Shown here: piece after piece, positions 45,349 through 61,343 of the stretch | Position numbering within the stretch: the first letter of the stretch is position 1 | How the letters are laid out: each line of letters starts with the position of its first letter | Assembly (NCBI RefSeq): GCF_011045215.1 | Contig: NZ_CP049202.1 | DNA length: 64,000 nt | Direction: 5' to 3' (one strand) | Source of the DNA: Escherichia coli | Lineage (GTDB): Bacteria; Pseudomonadota; Gammaproteobacteria; Enterobacterales; Enterobacteriaceae | The notes under the pieces: model-generated | Databases searched by the model: none | Seen by the model: only the letters and a program-made list of their open reading frames with translations | Told to the model about the DNA's origin: nothing | Position numbers and translations under genes: made by a program

Positions 45349-45779
45349 AACACACCTTATTTATCTTCCTAAACAAACAATATGTTTTCGTGCTCTCTAT
45401 TCTTCACCTTACGACGAATCGCCATTAGATTCATCATACTAAAATTACGATTCACTATACGAATCAGCAATCATCAAATGACGAATCTAATATAGATTCA
45501 CGCGCCAAGTAAATAGATGTTTTCAAAAAAATAGTCATTACTGAATCATTGACAATTCGTGATAGATTCACTATCGAATCTATCACGAATCCCTGCAATA
45601 TAATTCAAAATTATATAATATAAATACACTTCATTAATTACATGATTTAAAACACAAATCAGCAAAAACTTGTTTTTGCGTGGGGTGTGGTGCTTTTGGT
45701 GGTGAGAACCACCAACCTGTTGAGCCTTTTTGTGGAGTGGGTTAAATTATTTACGGATAAAGTCACCAGAGGTGGAAAA
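45349..45779. promoter_or_regulatory. oriT with nic site between 45688 and 45689 on the plus strand, plus TraM-binding repeats
   Basis: TTTTTGCGTGGGGTGT/GGTGCTTTTGGTGGTGAGAACCACC matches the F oriT nick region; GAATC/GATTC repeat motifs at about 45400-45590. Confidence 0.85.
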
Positions 45780-47811: not shown

Positions 47812-47837
47812 CCTGCTTTCTCCTCTCTCTGGTTTTC

Positions 47838-48380
47838 AGCCCCCATCATCTTTTGAGTTTCGGGAGCCGCGGTTTTGACGTTTTGCGGGGACCTGCCTTT
47901 TGTTCCCTCCGGTATTCACCATCATCTTTTTGAGAACCTTCGCCGCAAGGGGCATCACTGCCACGGCCGGAAACGACTGTCCGGGGGCAGACCGCAAAAG
48001 TTTTTGCCTGCTTCTGGGCAAAAACTTTTGCGGGATGTGCATTTCACCCCTGGACTGGCGGAGACGGTTGTGGCTGTATCAGCCCCCGGCGACAGGGGAT
48101 TAAACAGGTGAATGGCACCGGACAGAACAACGGGCAGGGACCCGCCGCAGCGACGTGAAGCGCGGTTTGCGAAACGGCGTTGCCCCTTACATCCCGGCGG
48201 CCTTTTGCCGGGATGCCGGGAGCGCAGGCCACGGCGCGACAGAGGCGGCGCGACCGGAACGGTCGCTGCAAGCCCGGGGTTTCGCGTCAGGGATGGAAGC
48301 CCGCCAGGGCGGAGACAGCTTCGCTGGCTCCGTTCACGACAGCCCGCCCCGCCAGGGGGACGCCCGGAAAAGGCATAAGC
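47838..48380. repeat. ~540-bp structured repeat, copy 1 (candidate single-strand promoter, Frpo/ssi-like)
   Basis: about 95 percent identical to 53226..53790; contains perfect 15-bp inverted repeat GCAAAAGTTTTTGCC...GGCAAAAACTTTTGC and longer imperfect arms. Confidence 0.6.
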
Positions 48381-48709
48381 AGGAGAACAACAAAACAGAC
48401 AATAATCAGGGCAGCAGTAATCAGAGTCAGAACAGGAGGAAAAAGAGAATAATCAAAGGGAAGGTGATGTGATTTCTGACAGGTCATAAACAGAGAAGGC
48501 GGGGGAAAAGAACGGGCGCCGCAGGCGCACGTTCATCCCCGTTCCCGGAGGGAAACGGCCTTCCTGGCAGTCTGGTTGTTCATGCCCGTACAATGCCAGC
48601 AAGGAGAAAGGGGCCACCGGCGAACCAGCAGCCCCTTTATAAAGGCGCTTCAGTGCAGTCAGACCAGCATCAGCCCTGAAAAGGCGGGCCTGCGCCCGCC
48701 TCCAGGTTG

Positions 48710-48868
48710 CTACTTACCGGATTCGTAAGCCATGAAAGCCGCCACCTCCCTGTATCCGTCTCTGTAACGAATCTCGCACAGCGATTTTCGTGTCAGATAA
48801 GTGAATATCAACAGTGTGAGACACACGATCAACACACACCAGACAAGAGAGCTGCGTGGTAGTTTCAT
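48710..48868 (-). CDS. hok: Hok/FlmA membrane toxin, with overlapping mok-like frame to 49009
   Basis: [52 protein letters not shown], near-identical to Hok. Confidence 0.85.
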
Positions 48869-49142
48869 GGCCTTCTTCTCCTTGCGCAAAGCGCGGTAAG
48901 AGGCTATCCTGATGTTGTCTAAGCATGCAGGGGCCTCGTGGGTTAATGAAAAATTAACTACGGGGCTTTTGTCCTTCTGCCACACAACACGGCAACAAAC
49001 CACCTTCACGTCATGAGGCAGAAAGCCTCAAGCGCCGGGCACATCATAGCCCATATCCCTGCACGCTGACCACACTCACTTTTCCTGAAAATAATCCGCT
49101 CATTCAGGCTGTTTACGGGTAATCTGTGTGATTGTTGCCGCA

Positions 49143-50347: not shown

Positions 50348-52306
50348 TCAGGCGGCATCAGCCAGGTTATCGGTGCGTTCAGTGGCATCCGTCTGTGGGC
50401 GTGGTGCACACATCCAGCCAGGCACCCAGCGGTTGTCTTTCATGTGGAACTCTGCATGTTCAGCCGCATCGCCTTTCTTCATCTTCTCCGCGTCCCGTGC
50501 AGCACCGGACAGTCCTGCCTCATTCAGGGCTGCGATAATCTGCGGCTTTTTCAGGTGTCCGAAGAAGTTTGCTTTTGTCGGCTGCCACCAGTCGCGCATG
50601 TGAAAGCCGATGGCGCTTTCCAGCGAATCCAGCGGACTGCGTGACGTGTGACCATACTCACGGGTCTGAACACCGTGGATGCTGCACGCAGTGCAGAAAC
50701 TGAGCAGGGACAACAGCACCTCCTGACTGAGTGACAGGAACGTCGCCATGTCCCGTGACCATCCCTCCGGTAACAGGGCCGCAAGACGGGCTTTTTCTGC
50801 CATCATCGCCATGAACGCGGCACCTTCCTTCCCTGACGGCGCATCGCTGGTCAGCGAATAATGTTTACATTCCAGGCTGATTTGTGCTGGTTTACTGTAC
50901 GCTCCGCTGCCAAACACATTCAGGCAGAGCGTCCATGCCAGCAGTGCCAGAGATTTGTCCGGTTGCTGCATGAGTGCTGTCTGGACTGCCAGCGTGCGTT
51001 CGGAAGACATTTTCGTCAGCAGTGGCAGACTGATTTCCTCCACTGATGCTTTCTCCTGCACCTGTTCCGTGCGGTCAGCGTCATCAGTCGCGTCATCTTC
51101 ACTGCGCAACTGCACACCACGCTGGACACATACGTTTCCATAACGCCAGGACACCACCACGCCACTTCCGGCACGCATCTCCGGCGTCCACGCCCTGACC
51201 TTCGCCATGCAGTCAATCAGCTTCATTTCTGCTTCCAGCAGGTCGGATTCCTCACACTGATTTTCCAGCGCGTCGTAACGTGCCATCAGTTCGTTCAGGC
51301 GTTCTTCTTCCGCCTCCGTCAGCACAGCTTCCGGCTCCGGCAGACTGCGGTATGTTCCGGCATCCTCACGGCAGAAACCGACAGGCTCCATACGTCCAGC
51401 ACACCATTCCCAGCCTTCGGCTTCCCGAAGGTGTTCAGCAACAGCCTGGAGTTTTTCCAGCAGGGCGGCATCGAGCGCCACGCAGTCCACATAGCCACCC
51501 TCGTTGTCGCTGAACAAATCGGTGCGCAGTTCATCTGGCGAGAAGGCATCAGCCCCCACGAAGCGGAATTTACTGTTCCCCGCCACCACCACTTCACTTT
51601 CGGTCACCAGACGACGAATGGTCTGTACTTCCGGTTTTCCGCCCCATCCCGACTGACAGGCAGCTTCAAACACCTGTACCTGACGTGCGGTGTCGTTCTC
51701 CAGCGCCAGCGCCTGACAGTGCTCTGTGGTGATGCGGTCTTCTGCCAGCGCATCGAGGATGACAGGCGCAAGGTCAGCCAGTTTCAGCATTCGCTGAACG
51801 TGGCGGGGTGAATAGCCCAGCAAATCACCGATTTGTGCAGGTGTTTTGCCTTCCTGCGCCATTGCGCGGAATCCGGCAATCTGTTCGGCAGGGTGCATAT
51901 CCCGACGATGACCGTTTTCAGTCATTGATGCGGCAGTCGCCAGTTCCTGCGGAATGACCTTCACACGGACAGGCCAGTCAGCCGGAATGATGCCACGCTC
52001 TGCCAGCATGTTGAGTGCTGCCAGTCGGCGACCACCTGCGGCGACACCGTGGCGGTCACCTGGCAGGGCATGAACAACCAGATTCTGTAACAGGCCGACA
52101 CCTTTAATGGAGTCCGCCAGTTCGCTGACGGACTCCGCAGAATACGGCACCGTGCGCACATTCAGCGGTGACTTAATCAGTGAGGACAGCGGCACGCTCA
52201 CTTCCTCCGTCTGCGCCAGCAGGGCAGACAGGGCAGTCTCCTGCTCTTTTGACGGTTTACGGCTGGATTTACGCTCCGTTTTTGTCTTAGACTCTGTAAC
52301 TGACAT
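50348..52306 (-). CDS. ParB-like nuclease-domain protein (leading region)
   Basis: 652 aa with N-terminal ParB/Srx-like region. Confidence 0.75.
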   Translation of the reverse strand: MSVTESKTKTERKSSRKPSKEQETALSALLAQTEEVSVPLSSLIKSPLNVRTVPYSAESVSELADSIKGVGLLQNLVVHALPGDRHGVAAGGRRLAALNMLAERGIIPADWPVRVKVIPQELATAASMTENGHRRDMHPAEQIAGFRAMAQEGKTPAQIGDLLGYSPRHVQRMLKLADLAPVILDALAEDRITTEHCQALALENDTARQVQVFEAACQSGWGGKPEVQTIRRLVTESEVVVAGNSKFRFVGADAFSPDELRTDLFSDNEGGYVDCVALDAALLEKLQAVAEHLREAEGWEWCAGRMEPVGFCREDAGTYRSLPEPEAVLTEAEEERLNELMARYDALENQCEESDLLEAEMKLIDCMAKVRAWTPEMRAGSGVVVSWRYGNVCVQRGVQLRSEDDATDDADRTEQVQEKASVEEISLPLLTKMSSERTLAVQTALMQQPDKSLALLAWTLCLNVFGSGAYSKPAQISLECKHYSLTSDAPSGKEGAAFMAMMAEKARLAALLPEGWSRDMATFLSLSQEVLLSLLSFCTACSIHGVQTREYGHTSRSPLDSLESAIGFHMRDWWQPTKANFFGHLKKPQIIAALNEAGLSGAARDAEKMKKGDAAEHAEFHMKDNRWVPGWMCAPRPQTDATERTDNLADAA

Positions 52307-52369: not shown

Positions 52370-53205
<836 letters not shown>

Positions 53206-53225: not shown

Positions 53226-53790
53226 TGTTTTCAGCCCCCATCATCTTTTGAGTTTCAGGAGCCGCGGTTTGACGTTTTGCGGGGACCTGCCTTTTGTTCC
53301 CTCCGGTATTCACCATCACCTTTTTGAGAACCTTCGCCGCAAGGGGCATCACTGCCACGGCCGGAAACGACTGTCCGGGGGCAGACCGCAAAAGTTTTTG
53401 CCTGCTTCTGGGCAAAAACTTTTGCGGGATGTGCATTTCACCCCTGGACTGGCGGAGACGGTTGTGGCTGTATCAGCCCCCGGCGACAGGGGATTAAACA
53501 GGTGAATGGCACCGGACAGAACAACGGGCAGGGCCCCGCCGCAACGACGGAGAGCGCGTGCGCGAAACGGCGTTGCCCCTTACATCCCGGCGGCCTTTTG
53601 TCGGGATGCCGGGAGCGCAGGCCACGGCGCGACAGAGGCGGCGCGACCGGAACGGTCGCTGCAAGCCAGGGTTTCGCGTCAGGGATAGAAGCCCGCCAGG
53701 GCGGAGACAGCTCCGCTGGCTCCGTTCACGACAGCCCGCCCCGCCCCGCCAGGGGGACGCCCGGAAAAGCCATAAACAGGAGAGGAACGG
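53226..53790. repeat. ~540-bp structured repeat, copy 2 (candidate single-strand promoter upstream of ssb)
   Basis: near-identical to 47838..48380, ends about 20 bp upstream of the ssb RBS. Confidence 0.6.
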
Positions 53791-53817
53791 AAAGAAGAGG
53801 AAGAGGAAAAAGAAAAA

Positions 53818-53841
53818 GAAGAAGAAGAAGAAGAAGAAGAA
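53818..53841. repeat. (GAA)8 trinucleotide microsatellite
   Basis: gaagaagaagaagaagaagaagaa read directly; absent from repeat copy 1. Confidence 0.9.
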
Positions 53842-54018
53842 CAATAACAAGCACGGTAACCACAGAAAAATAACATCAGAAAAAAACATTCCGGACACAT
53901 CACAAACAGGAAGGGTAACGGGCGACGCGTCAGCGTGGCCCGCTTCCCTTCCGGCAGGCGTCAGCCTGCCAGGGGTTTTCGCGCGGGCTGACAGGCGGCC
54001 TCCACCGCCTGCCCTGTA

Positions 54019-54210
54019 TCACCTGTTTCTGCTGCCCTGAAGGATGTACTGACCGCCGAGGAATACAGCCTGCTGATTCGCCACAAAATCGCAGATTTCA
54101 TCAACAATCTGCGCCGTGGTGAGCGGTTTCTGCCCCATTTCACGACGTCGTGCATTAATCACAGCTTTGTAATTACGCAGAATTTCGCGGGTTTCCGTGC
54201 TGATATTCAT
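54019..54210 (-). CDS. hypothetical small protein
   Basis: 63-aa ORF coupled to the stop of the upstream ORF. Confidence 0.4.
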   Translation of the reverse strand: MNISTETREILRNYKAVINARRREMGQKPLTTAQIVDEICDFVANQQAVFLGGQYILQGSRNR

Positions 54211-54629
54211 TACCCGTTCTCCCCGTCCAGCGCCTGACGCATCACCCGCATAATCTCACGTTCTTCCCTGACAAATGCGTCACCGTCGCCCCCGTTCTCG
54301 CTCCCGACAGCATGGAGGCGATAAATTTCACTACCAGCCATCACCATCACTTTTTCCAGCAGCACCGCAGGGACTGTTACAAGACGGTTTACGCGCTTTT
54401 CCTCCATCAGTTCATTGACAATATCGGAAACAACTCTGTCACATGCGCCATATACAAAAGCATCGTCCAGCCGCTGCATGACGGTTTCCAGCTCATCGTC
54501 TGTCAGACTCCAGTCCTGGGCTATGTGACGCACATCCCCACGGGTCAGCACCACGGCAAAAACGCATTCACTGTCCGGCACGTCTGTATCCAGTACATCG
54601 CGAATGATTTCTTTAACAGTACAGTACAT
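54210..54629 (-). CDS. leading-region hypothetical protein, paralogous to 56333..56767
   Basis: 139 aa; shares MY.T..E...., SLTD.E..TV..R..D and VTVPA.LL motifs with the 155-aa ORF. Confidence 0.55.
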   Translation of the reverse strand: MYCTVKEIIRDVLDTDVPDSECVFAVVLTRGDVRHIAQDWSLTDDELETVMQRLDDAFVYGACDRVVSDIVNELMEEKRVNRLVTVPAVLLEKVMVMAGSEIYRLHAVGSENGGDGDAFVREEREIMRVMRQALDGENG

Positions 54630-54675
54630 GTTCTCGTCTCCTTTACAGGGGCGGCATTGCCGCCCCGTCCGTTAA

Positions 54676-55101
54676 TCAGTCCAGTGCCGCGTAAATCGCG
54701 TTGCATTCAGGGTGAAATTCGATGTGACGCCACAACTGCGCATCACGCATCCGGTAAAGCTGAGTCAGCCCCGCATCACCGCTGTCGTGGTACAGCCACA
54801 ACTGACGGTTAATCACAAGGGAAGTCAGAATGACACCTGCGGCATCAGCACTCACAGTACGGTCAAACCAGTTTGCACCGTTCACCATGTGGAAACGGTC
54901 GCCATCCGGCATCATGTAACCGCCACCGTCCGGCAGGCGGATGAAGTGCCAGAATCCGCCTTCATATTCCGGCATCATTTTTTTCGCCAGCGCGTATACA
55001 GACGCTTCGGCATACAGAAAATCCTGGCCAAACAGGTAAGGCAGAAAAGACAGACGGTCGCACTCTTCAACGTTCAGAGTGACAGATTTCGCATATTGCA
55101 T
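54676..55101 (-). CDS. antirestriction-like protein (KlcA/ArdB-type, tentative)
   Basis: 141-aa acidic protein at the position where F-like leading regions carry an antirestriction homolog; assignment from recall only. Confidence 0.45.
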
Positions 55102-55138
55102 GATGTTTTCCTCCGTTGTTCACATATTCCGCGACACC

Positions 55139-55372
55139 GGGCGGTGCCGTGCCTCCATAAAAGCCGGGCGATAAGGCGGGGATGCAGGGGCGCAAGGGAA
55201 GCCGCAGCCTGACGCACACGGCTGACGGGAGTTGGAGGGTGAGACCGCGAAATCTGAGCGGGTGAACGACCGGAAAATCACGGCAGACGGGAAGAAAGGA
55301 CCGGGTGACCGCAGCGGCAAAGCGTACCCTTGCATCCCTGCCAGCCCGGCTAAGATGGAGGCACGGCACAGC
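55139..55372. promoter_or_regulatory. long imperfect inverted repeat (candidate single-strand promoter)
   Basis: arms GGCGGTGCCGTGCCTCCAT... and ...ATGGAGGCACGGCACAGCC with about 60-nt pairing, directly upstream of 54676..55101. Confidence 0.45.
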
Positions 55373-55517
55373 CCGCACACGACGCTGAGGCCACATAACT
55401 GAAAAACCACAAGGCCATGCCCTGCATGGCCGGGTAAAGCGGAGCCGGCGGCGACTTCCTTTGTGCTCTGTCCGGGGACCGGCAGGAAAAAGGCGGGGAT
55501 TTACCCCGCCAACGTCA

Positions 55518-56288
55518 TCATTTCCGGATTTTTGCCAGGGCATCCGCCATGCTGCGGATTTCGGCCCGGGCTTCCCGGACCACCTCCCGCAGAACACCAC
55601 GGTCAAACCAGCGGCGGGGCGGTTCATCCGGTATACGCAGCACATCGCAGGCCAGCCCACTGGACAGGATATGCTCAATACAATCGCTGACCAGGTACAT
55701 TTCCACCGACGAAAAACGTGCTCCCCGGTTCACGATGGCATCGAGCACCACGGGCAGGTTTTCGTCATCTTCATCGAGCCAGCAGGGGTGATCGCTTTCC
55801 TTCACAACCAGACGAAAGCGGCGCGTCTGGCGGGTCAGCAACGTCTGACCGGTGGTGGTCAGCGCCGCCCGGATACGCCGCGCATCGTCTGCCACCTGGT
55901 AACAGATGCTTCGTATTGCATCGCGCACCGCCGCAAGTACAGCCCTGATTTCGTCTTCTGCCAGCCACTCACCGGCATACGGGAAAGACACCTGCGTTCC
56001 GTCTGCCGGAAGTACCGGCAGCGACTGCCACTGACTGCCGGACAGAACAAGTTCCGCCCCGGTTCCGGTCAGTTTCTGAATGGCAGAGGCCAGGTGCGGC
56101 GGCAGTACGCCGCCGTGACGGTTGATAAGTAACGTCGCCAGCCGGGGCGTATCCAGCCGCACGTAAATGCTGATCCAGCCCGGATGGTTCGGATTTCGCT
56201 GGTCAACATCCGTCTCTTCCGGCCAGCCCTGCGCCAGCAGCAGGTTACGGGCGTGGCGACAAATCAGTGCATTCAGCGTTTCGTTCAT
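55518..56288 (-). CDS. leading-region hypothetical protein (256 aa)
   Basis: long ORF with protein-like composition; no motif recognised. Confidence 0.55.
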
Positions 56289-56332
56289 GATTCATGGTCT
56301 CCCTGAATCGCCGCCCGCAGGCGGCGATAACA

Positions 56333-56767
56333 TCAGTCGTTTTCGCGTGTGTTGTTTTTCAGCAGGGCGCGGGCCTGATTAACCACCGCCAGTCGGCGGG
56401 TGACGCATTCCGGGACGACGAGGCCGTTATCACGGGCGGCCCACTCACGTTTCCACAGTGCCTGTTCAGCGGTCTGAATCAGGGACGCCAGCAGTTCAGC
56501 AGGGACGGTCACCTGGCGGTTTTCGCTCACGTTGCTGATAATCTCCATCACCGCGGCGGAAGAAATACCGGATTCAGTCCTCTGGTCTTCCGGGATGTCC
56601 TCCATGCGCGCCAGGACGGTCCTGATTTCATGATCGGTCAGAGAAATTTCCATACCGTCAGCCAGTGCCTGAATCTCTTCCGGAGACCAGATAACCAGCA
56701 TCAGCGGCGTGTCTCCCGGATACTTTGCTGCCAGCTCCCGGCAGAGCGTTTCGCATGTTCCGTACAT
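56333..56767 (-). CDS. leading-region hypothetical protein, paralogous to 54210..54629
   Basis: about 144 aa from internal start MYGTCETL... Confidence 0.55.
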   Translation of the reverse strand: MYGTCETLCRELAAKYPGDTPLMLVIWSPEEIQALADGMEISLTDHEIRTVLARMEDIPEDQRTESGISSAAVMEIISNVSENRQVTVPAELLASLIQTAEQALWKREWAARDNGLVVPECVTRRLAVVNQARALLKNNTREND

Positions 56768-56780
56768 TCTCGTCTCCTTC

Positions 56781-57002
56781 TCAATCTTTAAAGCACGCAT
56801 CCAGTTCCAGAATTTCGGTATATGCCTCCATCAGGAGGCGGTTTGCGCGAAACAACGTCTGACGCACCAGACGTTCCGGCAGGGTGTCAGCATTAAAGCT
56901 GTACCGCCGCTCCATCTCATTCATGGTTGTACGCAGGTCGCACATGGCATTGGCCACCTCCGCCACTTCGGCGCGAAGTTTTTCGTGTCCGGCATAGTTC
57001 AT
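56781..57002 (-). CDS. hypothetical small protein
   Basis: 73-aa ORF abutting the methyltransferase gene. Confidence 0.35.
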   Translation of the reverse strand: MNYAGHEKLRAEVAEVANAMCDLRTTMNEMERRYSFNADTLPERLVRQTLFRANRLLMEAYTEILELDACFKD

Positions 57003-57686
57003 TTACGCAGCCTCCGGCATAAACCAGTCATCATTCGCGGCCCCCTGCTGCATGGCCCGTTGCACGGCGGCAAGGCGTTGCTGCCCGGCACGGTGATACT
57101 GCTCAAGCAGCTCGATACCGATATACCGGCGTCCGGACTGGAGGGCGGCGACGCAGGTTGAGCCGCTGCCTGCAAACGGGTCCAGCACAATTGCGTTCGG
57201 GTGTGTGAAGCTCTCAATCAGCGGTTGCAGGCTGGTAACGGGCTTTTCCGTCGGGTGATGGCGATTGCCCGAATATTTCCAGCCCAGCACGTCCGGCGGC
57301 GGGTTTTGTGGCAGACGTGGACGGCCTTTTGCCAGGATGTAGGCGCATTCGTGGCGATAGCCCACATATGCGGCCTTCGATGTGTAGTTTTTGGTGAAGA
57401 CCAGGTGACCAACAACGCTGAATCCCGCATTTTTCCAGGCGGCAATAAAGCGATCGACGCGGTTCCAGCCATAGAAGCTCACCATTAACGCGTCTTTTTT
57501 CAGCACGCGGTACATCTCATTACAGGCCGGTTGCAGCCATTCATCGGTTTTATCTCCGGCGATGGTGCGCCCGGAACGGTCACGAAAACCGACGAGATAT
57601 GGCGGGTCAGTTAATATGAAATCAATGGCGTTATCAGGGATACGCGTCATAACATCGATGCAGTTACCAAGAACAAAACGGGACAT
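57003..57686 (-). CDS. orphan DNA methyltransferase (DPPY motif, N6-adenine/N4-cytosine class)
   Basis: 227 aa with DPPY catalytic motif and FAGSGST AdoMet-binding motif; no adjacent restriction endonuclease gene. Confidence 0.85.
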   Translation of the reverse strand: MSRFVLGNCIDVMTRIPDNAIDFILTDPPYLVGFRDRSGRTIAGDKTDEWLQPACNEMYRVLKKDALMVSFYGWNRVDRFIAAWKNAGFSVVGHLVFTKNYTSKAAYVGYRHECAYILAKGRPRLPQNPPPDVLGWKYSGNRHHPTEKPVTSLQPLIESFTHPNAIVLDPFAGSGSTCVAALQSGRRYIGIELLEQYHRAGQQRLAAVQRAMQQGAANDDWFMPEAA

Positions 57687-58034
57687 AATAACGCTCCTTC
57701 TCTTACAGAGGGCACCGGGAGGGCACCCCTGTGGTGCCCGTTCCCCGCTGCCTGTGGGCTGTTCACCGCGTCCGGTAACGGGTCAGGCCGACCGTGGAAT
57801 ATCGCAGCCGTCGTCTTTTTGACGGCGAGAATATGCCGCGAAAGCGGCTTGAAGGGCGTTCATCAGAAAAGGGCGACAGGCTGGCGTACACTGTCACCGG
57901 TACCAGCCGGGAGCAGTAAAAGCGCCCGTCCCGTGCCCGCCGGACGCGGGACACTGACCACAGGCAGCGTTCCTGCCGCGCCGCGTCAGCCGGCGCAGTA
58001 AAAAGAGGAGCACGGCGACATCCTTTGTCGGAAA

Positions 58035-58062
58035 AGAAACGGGCGGTTGCCCGCCCGTCTCC
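58035..58062 (-). terminator. rho-independent terminator-like hairpin after the 323-aa ORF
   Basis: GGGCGG-GCAA-CCGCCC then U-rich run on the minus strand. Confidence 0.45.
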
Positions 58063-58070
58063 GTCATACT

Positions 58071-58997
58071 TCATCCGCCATAATGCGCCACATTGTCGAC
58101 TATCCACGCAGGTCCGGTGACTTCCGGCAGCTCATCGTCATCTGTCGGGGAAGAGCATTCCAGTTCCCCCCACAGCACATCAACGAGCTCTCCGCGCTCA
58201 TACAACTGCCAGCCACAGAAATTGCAGCCCTGTTCGGCGTACCAGTGCTCCAGCGTGCAGCCGAAACGGCGGCTTAATTCTGCAACAACGTTGCTTTCCG
58301 GCTGACACCACGGCGTGTCGAAATCCACCTGAATGAAGTTGTCTCCCTGACGGCTGATATTCACCTCATACCTCACAGGCCACTTCACGCCATACTGTTC
58401 CGTATACCAGTGATACGCAGAAGGAACACCGTTCAGAACACCACCGTTAAAGCCATTCACTTCAACATCCAGGCGGGTGGGCAGAACCGTCAGCAGGTCA
58501 AACGGCATGGTTTTTTCCGGCAGTACATTGTCACACAGACGGTTCCACCACACCGATACATCCTCGTTACTCCAGAAGCCACACCAGTCACCTCTTTTGG
58601 CGGTGAAATGCACGGTGATGGTTTCTCTGACCTCATCCGGTAATCCTTCCCAGCGACGCTGGCCAGTACCACTCTGCAGCCAGAGTTCATGCAGCATCAG
58701 GCAGTTTTGCTCATCCAGCAGTACACCGTCCTGCAGGTATGTCAGCCAGCGGGTGAACGCGATATTCTCCGGCGATACAACACCACGTCCGGCAGCCGTC
58801 AGTCCGGGGCACGGTTCAAACTGCACATCTTCAGTGGTCTGCAGAAGTCCGGCACTTCCGGCCAGAAATAGCTGAATACCTTCATTTGTGGCGCGGCGAT
58901 AAAGCGGTATGACTGCACCGCTGGCCAGTCGTTTAATCTCAGCGATCTGTGCCGGTTCACCAGAAAAATACATACGATTCGAGCACCAGTTTAGCAT
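58071..58997 (-). CDS. leading-region hypothetical protein (about 309 aa)
   Basis: W-rich ORF with its own upstream hairpin and downstream terminator. Confidence 0.55.
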   Translation of the reverse strand: MLNWCSNRMYFSGEPAQIAEIKRLASGAVIPLYRRATNEGIQLFLAGSAGLLQTTEDVQFEPCPGLTAAGRGVVSPENIAFTRWLTYLQDGVLLDEQNCLMLHELWLQSGTGQRRWEGLPDEVRETITVHFTAKRGDWCGFWSNEDVSVWWNRLCDNVLPEKTMPFDLLTVLPTRLDVEVNGFNGGVLNGVPSAYHWYTEQYGVKWPVRYEVNISRQGDNFIQVDFDTPWCQPESNVVAELSRRFGCTLEHWYAEQGCNFCGWQLYERGELVDVLWGELECSSPTDDDELPEVTGPAWIVDNVAHYGG

Positions 58998-59019
58998 GGG
59001 AATTCTCCTCTCACATGCG

Positions 59020-59195
59020 GCCTCCATCAGGCCGTGCCGCACCTGTAACCGGGCGACCGCATACGAATGCAGGTGCGGCCCCGAAGCCGCAGCGCGTGGA
59101 GGAGGAACGACGAAACGTGACCGGGTGAGGAGGCCTGCGACAGCGACACACTTGCATCGGATGCAGCCCGGTTAACGTGCCGGCACGGCCTGGGT
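59020..59195. promoter_or_regulatory. long imperfect inverted repeat (candidate single-strand promoter)
   Basis: arms CAGGCCGTGCCGCACCTG and GTGCCGGCACGGCCTGG with nested inner arms, about 25 bp upstream of the 58997 start. Confidence 0.4.
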
Positions 59196-59351
59196 AACCA
59201 GGTATTTTGTCCACAGAACCGTGCACAAAATGCTGTGGATAAGCTGGACACAACAGTCCACAGCAGGCATACAGCCACACTCTCAGAGAATTGAGCGTTT
59301 TTTAGTCACAATAATGACATTTGACTGTGTGTGGATTCAGTTATTAGAATA

Positions 59352-59367
59352 CTGTATATACATACAG
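59352..59367. promoter_or_regulatory. LexA (SOS) box
   Basis: CTGTATATACATACAG fits CTGT-N8-ACAG, 24 bp upstream of the impC-like start. Confidence 0.75.
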
Positions 59368-59390
59368 CAAAAGAAAAGGGAGATGAGAAC

Positions 59391-59639
59391 ATGATCCGCA
59401 TTGAAATTCTTTTCGACCACCAGAGCACAAAAAACCTCAAATCAGGCACACTTCAGGCGCTACAGAATGAAATCGAACAACGTCTGAAACCACACTACCC
59501 GGAAATCTGGCTACGTATAGACCAGGGCAGCGCCCCGTCTGTATCTGTCACTGGAGCCCGCAACGACAAGGATAAAGAACGTATCCAGTCTCTGCTGGAA
59601 GAAATCTGGCAGGACGACAGCTGGCTGCCCGCAGCATGA
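59391..59639 (+). CDS. impC: DinI-like protein (ImpC-type)
   Basis: 82 aa from ATG with GGGAG RBS; DinI-like sequence; first gene of an SOS operon. Confidence 0.7.
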   Translation: MIRIEILFDHQSTKNLKSGTLQALQNEIEQRLKPHYPEIWLRIDQGSAPSVSVTGARNDKDKERIQSLLEEIWQDDSWLPAA

Positions 59640-60073
59640 GTACCGTTTATCACCGTCCGGCTGACCCTTCAGGCGATGACAGTTACGTGCGACCGTTGTT
59701 TGCCGATCGTTGCCAGGCCGGTTTTCCTTCGCCTGCCACTGATTATGCTGAGCAGGAACTGGATCTGAACAGCTATTGCATCAGCAGACCTGCAGCCACC
59801 TTCTTTCTGCGCGCCAGCGGTGAATCGATGAACCAGTCTGGCGTGCAGAATGGTGATCTGCTGGTAGTGGACAGGGCCGAAAAACCACAACACGGGGACA
59901 TCGTTATCGCTGAGATCGACGGTGAGTTCACCGTCAAACGACTGCTGTTGCGCCCACGCCCGGCACTGGAGCCGGTTTCAGACAGCCCGGAGTTCCGCAC
60001 ACTGTATCCGGAAAACATCTGTATTTTTGGTATTGTCACTCACGTGATACACAGGACGCGGGAGTTACGCTGA
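59636..60073 (+). CDS. impA: UmuD-like protein (ImpA-type)
   Basis: 145 aa with LexA/UmuD-like peptidase region (...GESMNQSGVQNGDLLVVDR...). Confidence 0.85.
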   Translation: MSTVYHRPADPSGDDSYVRPLFADRCQAGFPSPATDYAEQELDLNSYCISRPAATFFLRASGESMNQSGVQNGDLLVVDRAEKPQHGDIVIAEIDGEFTVKRLLLRPRPALEPVSDSPEFRTLYPENICIFGIVTHVIHRTRELR

Positions 60074-61343
60074 TGTTTGCACTGGCTGATATCAACAGTT
60101 TCTACGCCTCATGTGAAAAAGTTTTCCGCCCGAACCTTCGCAACGAACCGGTCATCGTACTCAGCAATAACGATGGCTGTGTGATCGCGCGCAGCCCGGA
60201 GGCAAAAGCCCTTGGCATCAGAATGGGGCAGCTCTGGTTTCAGGTGAGACAAATGCGCCTGGAGAAGAAAATACATGTATTTTCCAGCAATTATGCGCTG
60301 TACCACAGCATGAGCCAACGGGTTATGGCTGTTCTGGAGTCGCTTTCTCCCGCAGTTGAGCCCTACTCAATTGATGAAATGTTCATTGATTTGCGGGGGA
60401 TAAATCATTGCATCTCTCCGGAGGTTTTTGGTCATCAGCTCAGGGAACAGGTAAAGAGCTGGACAGGACTCACCATGGGGGTGGGCATTGCGCCTACAAA
60501 AACGCTGGCTAAAAGTGCACAGTGGGCAACAAAGCAATGGCCACAGTTTTCCGGTGTGGTCGCGCTGACGGCAGAAAACCGTAATCGGAGCTTGAAGCTA
60601 CTGGGGCTGCAGCCAGTTGGTGAGGTCTGGGGAGTAGGACGCAAACTGACGGAAAAGCTGAATGCGCTGGGTATTAACACAGCACTGCAACTGGCGCAGG
60701 CTAACACGGCATTCATCCGGAAAAACTTCAGCGTCATTCTTGAGCGTACGGTACGCGAACTCAACGGCGAGTCCAGCATATCCCTGGAAGAAGCACCACC
60801 GGCAAAACAGCAGATTGTCTGTAGTCGCAGTTTTGGTGAACGAATCACAGACAAAGATGCCATGCACCAGGCTGTTGTTCAGTATGCAGAGCGGGCCGCA
60901 GAGAAACTACGTGGGGAGCGTCAGTATTGTCGGCAGGTGACGACATTTGTACGGACATCCCCCTTTGCAGTAAAAGAACCCTGTTACAGCAATGCCGCTG
61001 TGGAAAAGCTTTCATTGCCACACAGGACAGCCGGGACATTATTGCCGCCGCATGCAGAGCCTTAAACCATGTCTGGCGTGAAGGGTACCGCTATATGAAG
61101 GCAGGAGTCATGCTGGCTGATTTCACACCATCGGGTATAGCGCAGCCGGGATTATTTGATGAAATCCAGCCCCGTAAAAACAGTGAAAAGTTAATGAAAA
61201 CACTCGATGAACTGAACCAGTCGGGAAAAGGGAAAGTGTGGTTTGCGGGGCGAGGAACCGCCCCTGAATGGCAAATGAAACGGGAAATGCTATCGCCTTC
61301 GTATACAACACAATGGACTGAGATCCCCATTGCTTCATTCTGA
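60073..61343 (+). pseudogene. impB: UmuC-like Y-family DNA polymerase (ImpB-type) with frameshift near 61010-61020
   Basis: 330-aa ORF (MFALADINSFYASCEKVFRP...) continues as a 138-aa ORF in another frame; together about 423 codons. Confidence 0.75.

Follow-up and report, generated by a model that had tools for sequence, protein, structure and literature searches.

Probable early transcription units behind hairpin promoters in a plasmid leading region: a likely establishment block with a candidate additional unit

Introduction

What is the role of the eight minus-strand genes that separate ssb from an impCAB-like operon in an Escherichia coli plasmid, and how could such genes be read while the incoming DNA is still single-stranded? 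The block occupies positions 54019-58997 of a 64,000-nucleotide (nt) stretch of contig NZ_CP049202.1, the whole of which we call the window. An earlier note, made from the sequence, had set it down as a group of undescribed genes with possible anti-defence functions. We find that the block is very likely a set of early 'establishment' transcription units, expressed from hairpins that resemble known single-stranded DNA (ssDNA) promoters. Two of these units have orthologs whose early expression has been published; the third, a shortened hairpin ahead of a DUF1281 gene, is added here as a candidate.

The segment is carried by thousands of resistance and virulence plasmids of the IncF and IncI groups and, judging from its orthologs, would be expressed within the first minutes of its arrival in a new host. 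Its methyltransferase and KlcA already explain part of plasmid restriction evasion. As for the six remaining proteins, few plasmid proteins without known function are as widespread; the question is recognised in the field, and a role for them would help to understand, and possibly to block, plasmid establishment. Leading regions in general are enriched in anti-defence genes and uncharacterised families (PMC11541004).

Results

Two units with published orthologs

The block contains the following genes and hairpins (aa, amino acids; dN/dS, ratio of nonsynonymous to synonymous substitution rates).

54019-54210, minus: orf63, ortholog of pESBL Hp13; 63 aa, basic (pI 9.6), last gene of the klcA operon
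54210-54629, minus: DUF1380a (YcjA in some sources); 139 aa, directly downstream of klcA
54676-55101, minus: KlcA/ArdB antirestriction protein (YubI/yfgB in F; KlcA/ArdB in pESBL); 141 aa
55119-55394, plus: class-2 ssDNA promoter hairpin (ssp2 of F), arms 55138-55169 and 55344-55375, upstream of klcA
55518-56288, minus: YchA (YubG, NgrC; pESBL Hp11); 256 aa, last gene of the methyltransferase operon, no Pfam family
56333-56767, minus: DUF1380b; 144 aa from the ATG at 56767 (155 aa from the RefSeq start at 56800)
56781-57002, minus: YubE-family protein; (probable membership) 73 aa, start abutting the methyltransferase stop (0-nt gap), dN/dS 0.07
57003-57686, minus: beta-class orphan N6-adenine DNA methyltransferase, ortholog of M.EcoGIX (YubD/YfeA in F, YfbB in R64); 227 aa
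57700-58009, plus: class-3 ssDNA promoter hairpin, arms 57746-57775 and 57940-57969, upstream of the methyltransferase
58071-58997, minus: DUF1281/Api92-like protein (pESBL Hp8); 308 aa from the ATG at 58997
59010-59214, plus: shortened class-2-type hairpin, candidate ssDNA promoter, with TTGCAT at 59152-59157 and TAACGT at 59173-59178

Is this segment new? A megablast search of PLSDB with window 53400-59400 finds the block in at least 5000 records at 90% identity or more (Escherichia, Klebsiella, Salmonella, Shigella), and query coverage reaches 80% or more in at least 3944 of the records. It is among the commonest pieces of enterobacterial plasmid DNA. The IncI1 plasmid pESBL-EA11 (pESBL; R64/ColIb-P9 share this leading region) matches it in a single colinear alignment of 5461 bp at 93.5% identity, spanning window 59400-53949, with the same gene order, orientation and intergenic hairpins; the order there is Hp8 - M.EcoGIX - Hp9 - Hp10 - Hp11 (YchA) - KlcA/ArdB - Hp12 - Hp13. 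At the protein level, identity to pESBL is 98.6% for YubE, 98.4% for orf63, 95.7% for KlcA, 94.3% for the methyltransferase, 93% for DUF1281, 92% for YchA, 89% for DUF1380b and 83% for DUF1380a. With such a distribution, and with published functions for orthologs, the description of the block as undescribed does not hold; nothing is unusual in the present copy, and the logic of the segment is already in print.

That logic comes from pESBL and F. In pESBL, donor-elimination RNA sequencing (RNA-seq) and 5' rapid amplification of cDNA ends (5' RACE) revealed six induced operons, each behind a hairpin ssDNA promoter. These promoters fall into class 1 (Frpo/ssi), class 2 (upstream of klcA and ardA) and class 3 (upstream of M.EcoGIX), and 5' RACE starts were mapped for the klcA and ardA hairpins; in F, four ssDNA promoter operons were described, and the klcA and M.EcoGIX operons are induced early (PMC12672017). 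A second study also describes the F leading region as four hairpin-promoter operons, and reports that ssp2 stalls complementary-strand synthesis as well (bioRxiv 10.64898/2026.01.09.698686). Early-transcription RNA-seq in recipients, which the earlier note named as a check, has therefore been published on orthologs, with a positive outcome for two of the three transcription units proposed here (PMC12672017). By published description, F (Frpo1, Frpo2, ssp2, ssp3) resembles the present plasmid in its four-operon plan, with yfgB behind ssp2 and the M.EcoGIX homolog YfeA behind a class-3 promoter, and its Frpo1/Frpo2 duplication is also found here. It differs in that four ssDNA promoters are reported for F, whereas a fifth candidate, upstream of DUF1281, is found here.

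In the present sequence, two long inverted repeats fall exactly in the two large internal gaps of the block. The region of the klcA hairpin (55102-55517), folded as ssDNA, is more stable than its shuffles (z=-4.9), and the hairpin is homologous to the pESBL klcA and ardA hairpins by alignment and by nhmmer; its 3' arm carries TTGCAT (55330-55335) and TAAGAT (55351-55356). The class-3 hairpin region likewise folds better than shuffles (z=-7.9; plus strand, ssDNA), and nhmmer finds the hairpin upstream of the methyltransferase in pESBL and in two diverged loci, L010 and L011. The class-1 Frpo/ssi promoters (Masai and Arai 1997) work on a like principle: a transferred-strand hairpin rebuilds a -35/-10-like duplex, mismatched in the -10 region, whose activity ends once the complementary strand is synthesised. 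The class-2 and class-3 hairpins differ from them in having no sequence similarity to class 1.

A candidate unit upstream of DUF1281

Could the remaining gene of the block have a hairpin promoter of its own? The 288-nt gap between DUF1281 and the divergent DinI-like-umuD genes folds into a plus-strand hairpin (59001-59330, z=-3.6). About 31 nt separate the end of this hairpin from the DUF1281 start codon, and about 37 nt that of the klcA hairpin from klcA. The two have in common the blocks GCCGTGCC, CCGGGCG, ATGCAGG, AAGCCGCAGC and CGGGTGA, and one layout: TTGCAT, 15 nt, TAAGAT or TAACGT (TAnnnT), 3 nt and GGCACGGC, with an internal bubble opposite the -10-like hexamer. The hexamers in this layout were picked by ourselves and have an atypical spacing. 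Equivalent hairpins lie upstream of DUF1281 in pESBL and in the diverged loci L006 and L008. We infer from these features that the hairpin may act as a promoter and form, with DUF1281, an additional ssDNA-promoter unit; as such a candidate it is an addition to the published promoter lists.

The protein behind it belongs to Pfam DUF1281 (PF06924, E=4.5e-49) with a DUF1281_C domain (PF18406, E=1e-14), and matches PDB 2IJR, 'hypothetical protein api92', over residues 3-275 (E=1e-50), an unannotated structural-genomics entry. It is very acidic, with a net charge of about -22.

A covarying hairpin family spread before individual genes

How far does the class-2 hairpin extend beyond close relatives? 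Diverged loci were recovered through distant YchA homologs (23-40% identity) and searched by nhmmer with a class-2 profile. The profile combined both hairpins of the window with their pESBL klcA and DUF1281 counterparts, so these four match by construction (klcA hairpin of the window, E=7e-83; pESBL klcA, 5e-81; DUF1281 hairpin of the window, 1e-52). Independent matches are the pESBL ardA hairpin (8e-79) and the diverged loci. The further copies always lie on the transferred strand, immediately upstream of single genes, among them DUF1281, a YchA-like gene, the gene of a 156-aa protein, KlcA, ArdA and a second methyltransferase-like gene. In four of the loci (L006 4691-8322, L004 3400-5521, L008 2809-6355 and L011 5465-12964) nearly every leading gene has its own class-2-type hairpin. 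The hairpin thus behaves like a portable promoter cassette.

An alignment of 18 hairpins gives a consensus structure of 41 pairs, in which 94.6% of the cells are paired. Compensatory change occurs in 22 of the 41 pairs, compared with 12+/-1.8 in shuffles (0 of 500 reach 22) and 6-10 when partner columns are slid, a comparison that somewhat favours the structure, the consensus having been derived from the tested alignment itself. The modular, covarying spread of class-2 hairpins before individual leading genes is an addition to the published picture.

Two stretches of this alignment (A5) are conserved as sequence:

columns 82-92, window 55198-55208: almost invariant class-2 motif
columns 190-200, window 55296-55306: almost invariant class-2 motif

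The motifs AAGCCGCAGC and G(A/C)CGGGTGA are almost invariant among the 18 diverged copies, and only three of their bases pair mutually. This suggests sequence-specific recognition beyond the structure of the stem.

The methyltransferase operon

The DPPY methyltransferase recognised in the earlier note is confirmed as such. It belongs to the plasmid PRK13699 subfamily (NCBIfam NF010253, E=2e-149; score 495, cut-off 244) and aligns across all 227 residues with the product of pESBL 54782-55465, which is M.EcoGIX (PMC4288162). In the translation, DPPY at residues 27-30 precedes DPFAGSGST (FAGSGS) in the C-terminal third, the beta-class order. It is an orphan enzyme: its neighbours are YubE and the class-3 hairpin, with no nuclease, and its orientation permits transcription from the transferred strand. 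The single-strand-specific orphan methyltransferases M.EcoGIX and M.BceJIII have the same beta-class layout (DPPY before an FxGxG-type motif), leading-region location and orientation; no difference from M.EcoGIX is detectable in the present sequence.

M.EcoGIX deposits N6-methyladenine on ssDNA at SAY sites, asymmetrically, on the entering strand, and its activity is reported to require host partners (PMC7736820). When it is deleted, transfer into recipients with EcoGIII or EcoRI falls by as much as 1000-fold (PMC7736820, PMC4288162). The reported homologs are YfeA of F (91%) and YfbB of R64 (94%) (PMC4288162).

Downstream of the methyltransferase, the 73-aa protein matches PHROG 4830 (E=3e-34). 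Its YubE label (PF27407) rests on 55% identity to a 73-aa protein of L011 annotated with this family; a Pfam-A scan gave no match. DUF1380b matches PHROG 9024 (E=6e-73), carries the RefSeq name DUF1380 (PF07128) and corresponds to pESBL Hp10; its AlphaFold2 model is all-helical and of moderate confidence (predicted local distance difference test, pLDDT, 78; predicted template modelling score, pTM, 0.44). YchA has no match in a PDB sequence search, and its predicted model, a confident one, no fold relative in the PDB. A PDB search with the DUF1380 profile was also without a match.

The order methyltransferase-YubE-DUF1380-YchA is preserved in L010 and L011, and L011 has two YchA paralogs. Several contigs carry natural in-frame DUF1380b-YchA fusions of 375 aa (P0058, P0100 and similar proteins; P0100 in up to 15 contigs), in which residues 1-136 of DUF1380b run on into residues 9-256 of YchA; the junction is an 'AR.LL' microhomology that the two have in common. 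A module 'W..LT(D/E)xEI' apparently common to DUF1380, YchA and the 156-aa protein was rejected (pairwise E 0.004-0.1; profile-profile probability 0.6%), and the 156-aa neighbour of distant YchA homologs is not detectable as a DUF1380 protein.

The klcA operon

For the antirestriction-like protein, the tentative assignment of the earlier note proved right: it is KlcA/ArdB. Full-length homology extends to KlcA of PDB 2KMG (E=8e-18, residues 11-141) and to ArdB of 2WJ9 (E=4e-7), the match to PHROG 10132 (anti-restriction) has E=4e-19, and syntenic homologs in diverged loci carry PF03230 (Antirestrict). KlcA (RP4/pBP136) and ArdB are of the same size as the present protein; its relation to the solved KlcA is distant.

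In F, the ssDNA promoter ssp2 precedes yfgB, which is 93% identical to ArdB of R64, and without ssp2 fewer transfers into restriction-proficient hosts succeed (bioRxiv 10.64898/2026.01.09.698686). Into the non-isogenic recipients HS, IAI1, B and ED1a, transfer of delta-ssp2 F falls 21-fold or more. ArdB(R64)/KlcA is reported to inhibit Type I restriction, and the delta-ssp2 phenotypes imply the same for F yfgB. The antirestriction strength of this family is reported to depend on expression level and context (PMC11602122).

DUF1380a has a net charge of -14 and weak family matches (Pfam DUF1380, E=0.0036; PHROG 9024, E=6e-4). The earlier note had called the two DUF1380 proteins clear paralogs. 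Their paralogy stands (BLASTP E=1e-9, a shared PHROG 9024, and intermediate sequences from other plasmids that bridge the two in alignment A4), but 'clear' overstates it, as the relation is a distant one of 28% identity over 120 aa. A DUF1380a homolog follows KlcA in the diverged L006 (40% identical) and in L011 as well. The start of orf63 overlaps the DUF1380a stop. This protein belongs to no NCBIfam or PHROG family and has a non-significant Pfam match (DUF7420, E=0.036); its dN/dS against Hp13 is 0.03, and a syntenic homolog in L010 is 60% identical.

Coding evidence

Are all eight open reading frames (ORFs) genes? All lie on the minus strand where the earlier note had placed them, DUF1281 with 308 aa from its ATG instead of 309. 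A GGAG-type ribosome-binding site precedes each ORF, dN/dS against the pESBL orthologs is 0.03-0.35, and substitutions concentrate at third codon positions; these are therefore real genes and not chance ORFs. Spacing within the methyltransferase operon (gaps of 0, 13 and 44 nt) and the klcA operon (46 and -1 nt) is operon-like. Sequence identity, hairpins, synteny and selection on the ORFs are established for the block itself.

Another annotated ORF has a different record. RefSeq places an arginine-rich 103-aa 'hypothetical protein' at 57763-58074 (minus), overlapping the class-3 hairpin, and the same ORF is annotated in pESBL. Between the two plasmids its substitutions are distributed 6/4/4 over the codon positions, and 10 of the 14 substituted sites alter the amino acid. 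On this pattern the ORF is probably spurious, a mis-annotation.

Searches of NCBIfam, PHROGs and Pfam with the block proteins returned no functional family besides the methyltransferase and KlcA, and searches of the literature for DUF1380, DUF1281/Api92, YchA and YubE turned up no functional study. As the earlier note had judged, a role can be guessed for the methyltransferase and KlcA only; the other six are still without a described function.

Setting of the block

Where in the plasmid does the block lie? The plus strand carries an exact match to the F-type nic sequence at 45682-45696, placed with the nic consensus of the F oriT. The plus strand is thus the transferred strand and the template of all minus-strand genes, as the earlier note had supposed for the whole block; from the orientation of nic, it enters 5' to 3' toward higher coordinates, with the block 8.3-13.4 kb from nic. 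Minus-strand genes below 45.3 kb fit, in our reading, a tra operon in size and order. PsiB, a 652-aa ParB-like protein, DUF905 and SSB follow in the usual leading-region order (ORFs and RefSeq annotation), and a plasmid 99.8% identical to the present one is IncFIA/FIB, MOBF and conjugative by RefSeq typing. The region is, with high probability, the oriT-distal half of a leading region of IncF/IncI type. Nic position, gene order and flanks all agree with the location that the earlier note had proposed, including its ssb and impCAB-like borders:

50348-52306, minus: HerB/YfjB, ParB-like, 652 aa, next to psiB
52666-53205: ssb, flank of the block
53437-53790, plus: Frpo2-type (class 1) ssDNA promoter region upstream of ssb, just outside the block; fold z=-4.5
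from 59331, plus: DinI-like gene and umuD/umuC, opposite flank, divergent from DUF1281

A scan of the region for duplex sigma-70 sites found a sole one, on the impCAB side of the block, for the plus-strand operon.

The plasmid differs from pESBL in its IncF backbone (MOBF, F-type nic), in having no ardA unit in the block, where pESBL has one, and in the segment between orf63 and ssb, which holds an (AAG)n tract here and a 123-aa ORF in pESBL. The tract, of about 17 units (53792-53841), lies within a longer purine-only run of the transferred strand, between the orf63 stop and the Frpo2 repeat; colinearity with pESBL ends at 53949, so the segment is not shared.

Discussion

How might such a block work? 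As the transferred plus strand enters the recipient, long imperfect hairpins would rebuild promoter-like duplexes, from which host RNA polymerase would transcribe toward oriT until the complementary strand is made. In the first unit, the class-3 hairpin would drive the methyltransferase, YubE, DUF1380b and YchA, and the methyltransferase would place N6-methyladenine at degenerate SAY sites of the single strand as it arrives, blunting Type II restriction. In the second, the class-2 hairpin (ssp2) would drive KlcA/ArdB, DUF1380a and orf63, with KlcA/ArdB countering Type I restriction; the hairpin, as in F, may also stall complementary-strand synthesis and so prolong expression. In the third, which we propose here, the shortened hairpin would drive DUF1281.

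Several points weigh against this picture. The methylation and antirestriction activities, the early induction and the mapped starts of transcription come from orthologs at 91-96% identity, so that all function ascribed to the present plasmid is transferred from them. By transposon sequencing (TnSeq) in pESBL, none of the genes of the block was essential when E. coli K-12 was the recipient (PMC4288162), and deletions of klcA/ardB were without effect in some other plasmids (PMC11602122). The 15-nt linear spacing between the -35-like and -10-like hexamers, our own choice of hexamers, is short for sigma-70, and fold searches on YchA and DUF1380 gave no functional lead.

The third unit carries doubts of its own. 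Neither the six promoters reported for pESBL nor the four for F include its hairpin. Induction is also reported not to extend to every leading gene (PMC12672017), so that DUF1281 may lack early expression, and the -10-like TAACGT of the hairpin is weaker than TAAGAT. The hairpin is also shorter and, folded alone, less stable than that of klcA (-48 against -74 kcal/mol), and lies in a divergent intergenic region that holds the sigma-70-like site of the plus-strand operon. Could it be a decayed class-2 relic, or a regulatory feature of the divergent impCAB/umuDC promoter region, rather than an active ssDNA promoter? This is quite possible, if somewhat short of an even chance, and so, to the same degree, is its corollary, that DUF1281 is expressed conventionally or barely at all. 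Against this, the hairpin keeps its place, strand and distance from the DUF1281 start in pESBL and in the far more diverged L006 and L008, with paired changes. Other shortened hairpins (about 190-215 nt, longer than 59010-59214) precede antirestriction genes, klcA in L006 and ardA in L004. As for its absence from the lists, hairpins were called in the published screen at a cut-off of -75 kcal/mol per 300 nt. The intergenic region around the element (330 nt) folds at -67.6, and the screen would probably have missed it. The ORFs themselves raise a further alternative, namely that some, especially those of 63 and 73 aa, arose by chance in GC-rich DNA. Both are short and lack a significant Pfam-A match, and the window is rich in spurious overlapping ORFs. 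This is highly improbable given their dN/dS values (0.03 and 0.07, with nearly all substitutions at third positions), their syntenic homologs of 55-60% identity in diverged loci, their Shine-Dalgarno sites, and their starts and stops, which abut or overlap neighbours; the 103-aa ORF over the class-3 hairpin fails the coding test that both pass.

What, then, do the six uncharacterised proteins do? We infer that they may serve establishment or anti-defence, perhaps partnering the conserved proteins encoded beside them. They may instead be establishment or host-reprogramming factors, or partners and regulators of KlcA and the methyltransferase, with no part in anti-defence; we give this version a lesser, though real, chance. 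It draws on the ParB-like YfjB-family protein of the same leading region, renamed HerB. A July 2026 preprint reports that this protein binds to the chromosome of the recipient and, once transfer has taken place, reprograms transcription in the host rather than blocking defence (PMC13370423). The KlcA-DUF1380a and DUF1380b-YchA pairs stay adjacent in diverged elements, and with the natural fusions this adjacency fits, weakly, proteins that work with their neighbours. The reported need of M.EcoGIX for host partners points the same way, and none of the six matches a known anti-defence family in NCBIfam or PHROG. Against it, YchA-like genes also occur without DUF1380, beside the unrelated 156-aa protein and each behind its own hairpin, and the strong acidity of DUF1281 and DUF1380 would fit inhibitors or DNA mimics as well. 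A bolder form of the establishment reading would combine the extra DUF1281 ssDNA-promoter unit with a new inhibitor of defence or DNA processing in at least one of the six (DUF1281, the DUF1380 pair, YchA, YubE and orf63), possibly acting with a neighbour. We consider this combination rather doubtful.

Other observations in the window

The Frpo region upstream of ssb is one half of a 560-bp direct repeat, 47832-48391 (Frpo1) and 53227-53788 (Frpo2), whose copies are 92-98% identical, lie 5.4 kb apart and bracket the hok/sok, psiA, psiB, parB-like and ssb genes. Frpo1 and Frpo2 have been described (PMC9849209). An nhmmer profile of class 1 matches only these two copies. Between them, the sok antitoxin RNA of a hok/sok (flm) module lies at 48866-49037 (minus, 92.6 bits); it is the only hit of the Rfam scan, outside the block.

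Beyond the opposite flank, the umuC/impB-like polymerase gene (60073-61343, plus) is split into overlapping ORFs of 330 aa (60073-61065) and 138 aa (60927-61343), whose combined extent matches that of the 423-aa gene, intact in pESBL. The split points to a frameshift, which would be a sequencing error or the mark of a pseudogene; among the matches listed, the closest PLSDB record has no coding sequence at this gene.

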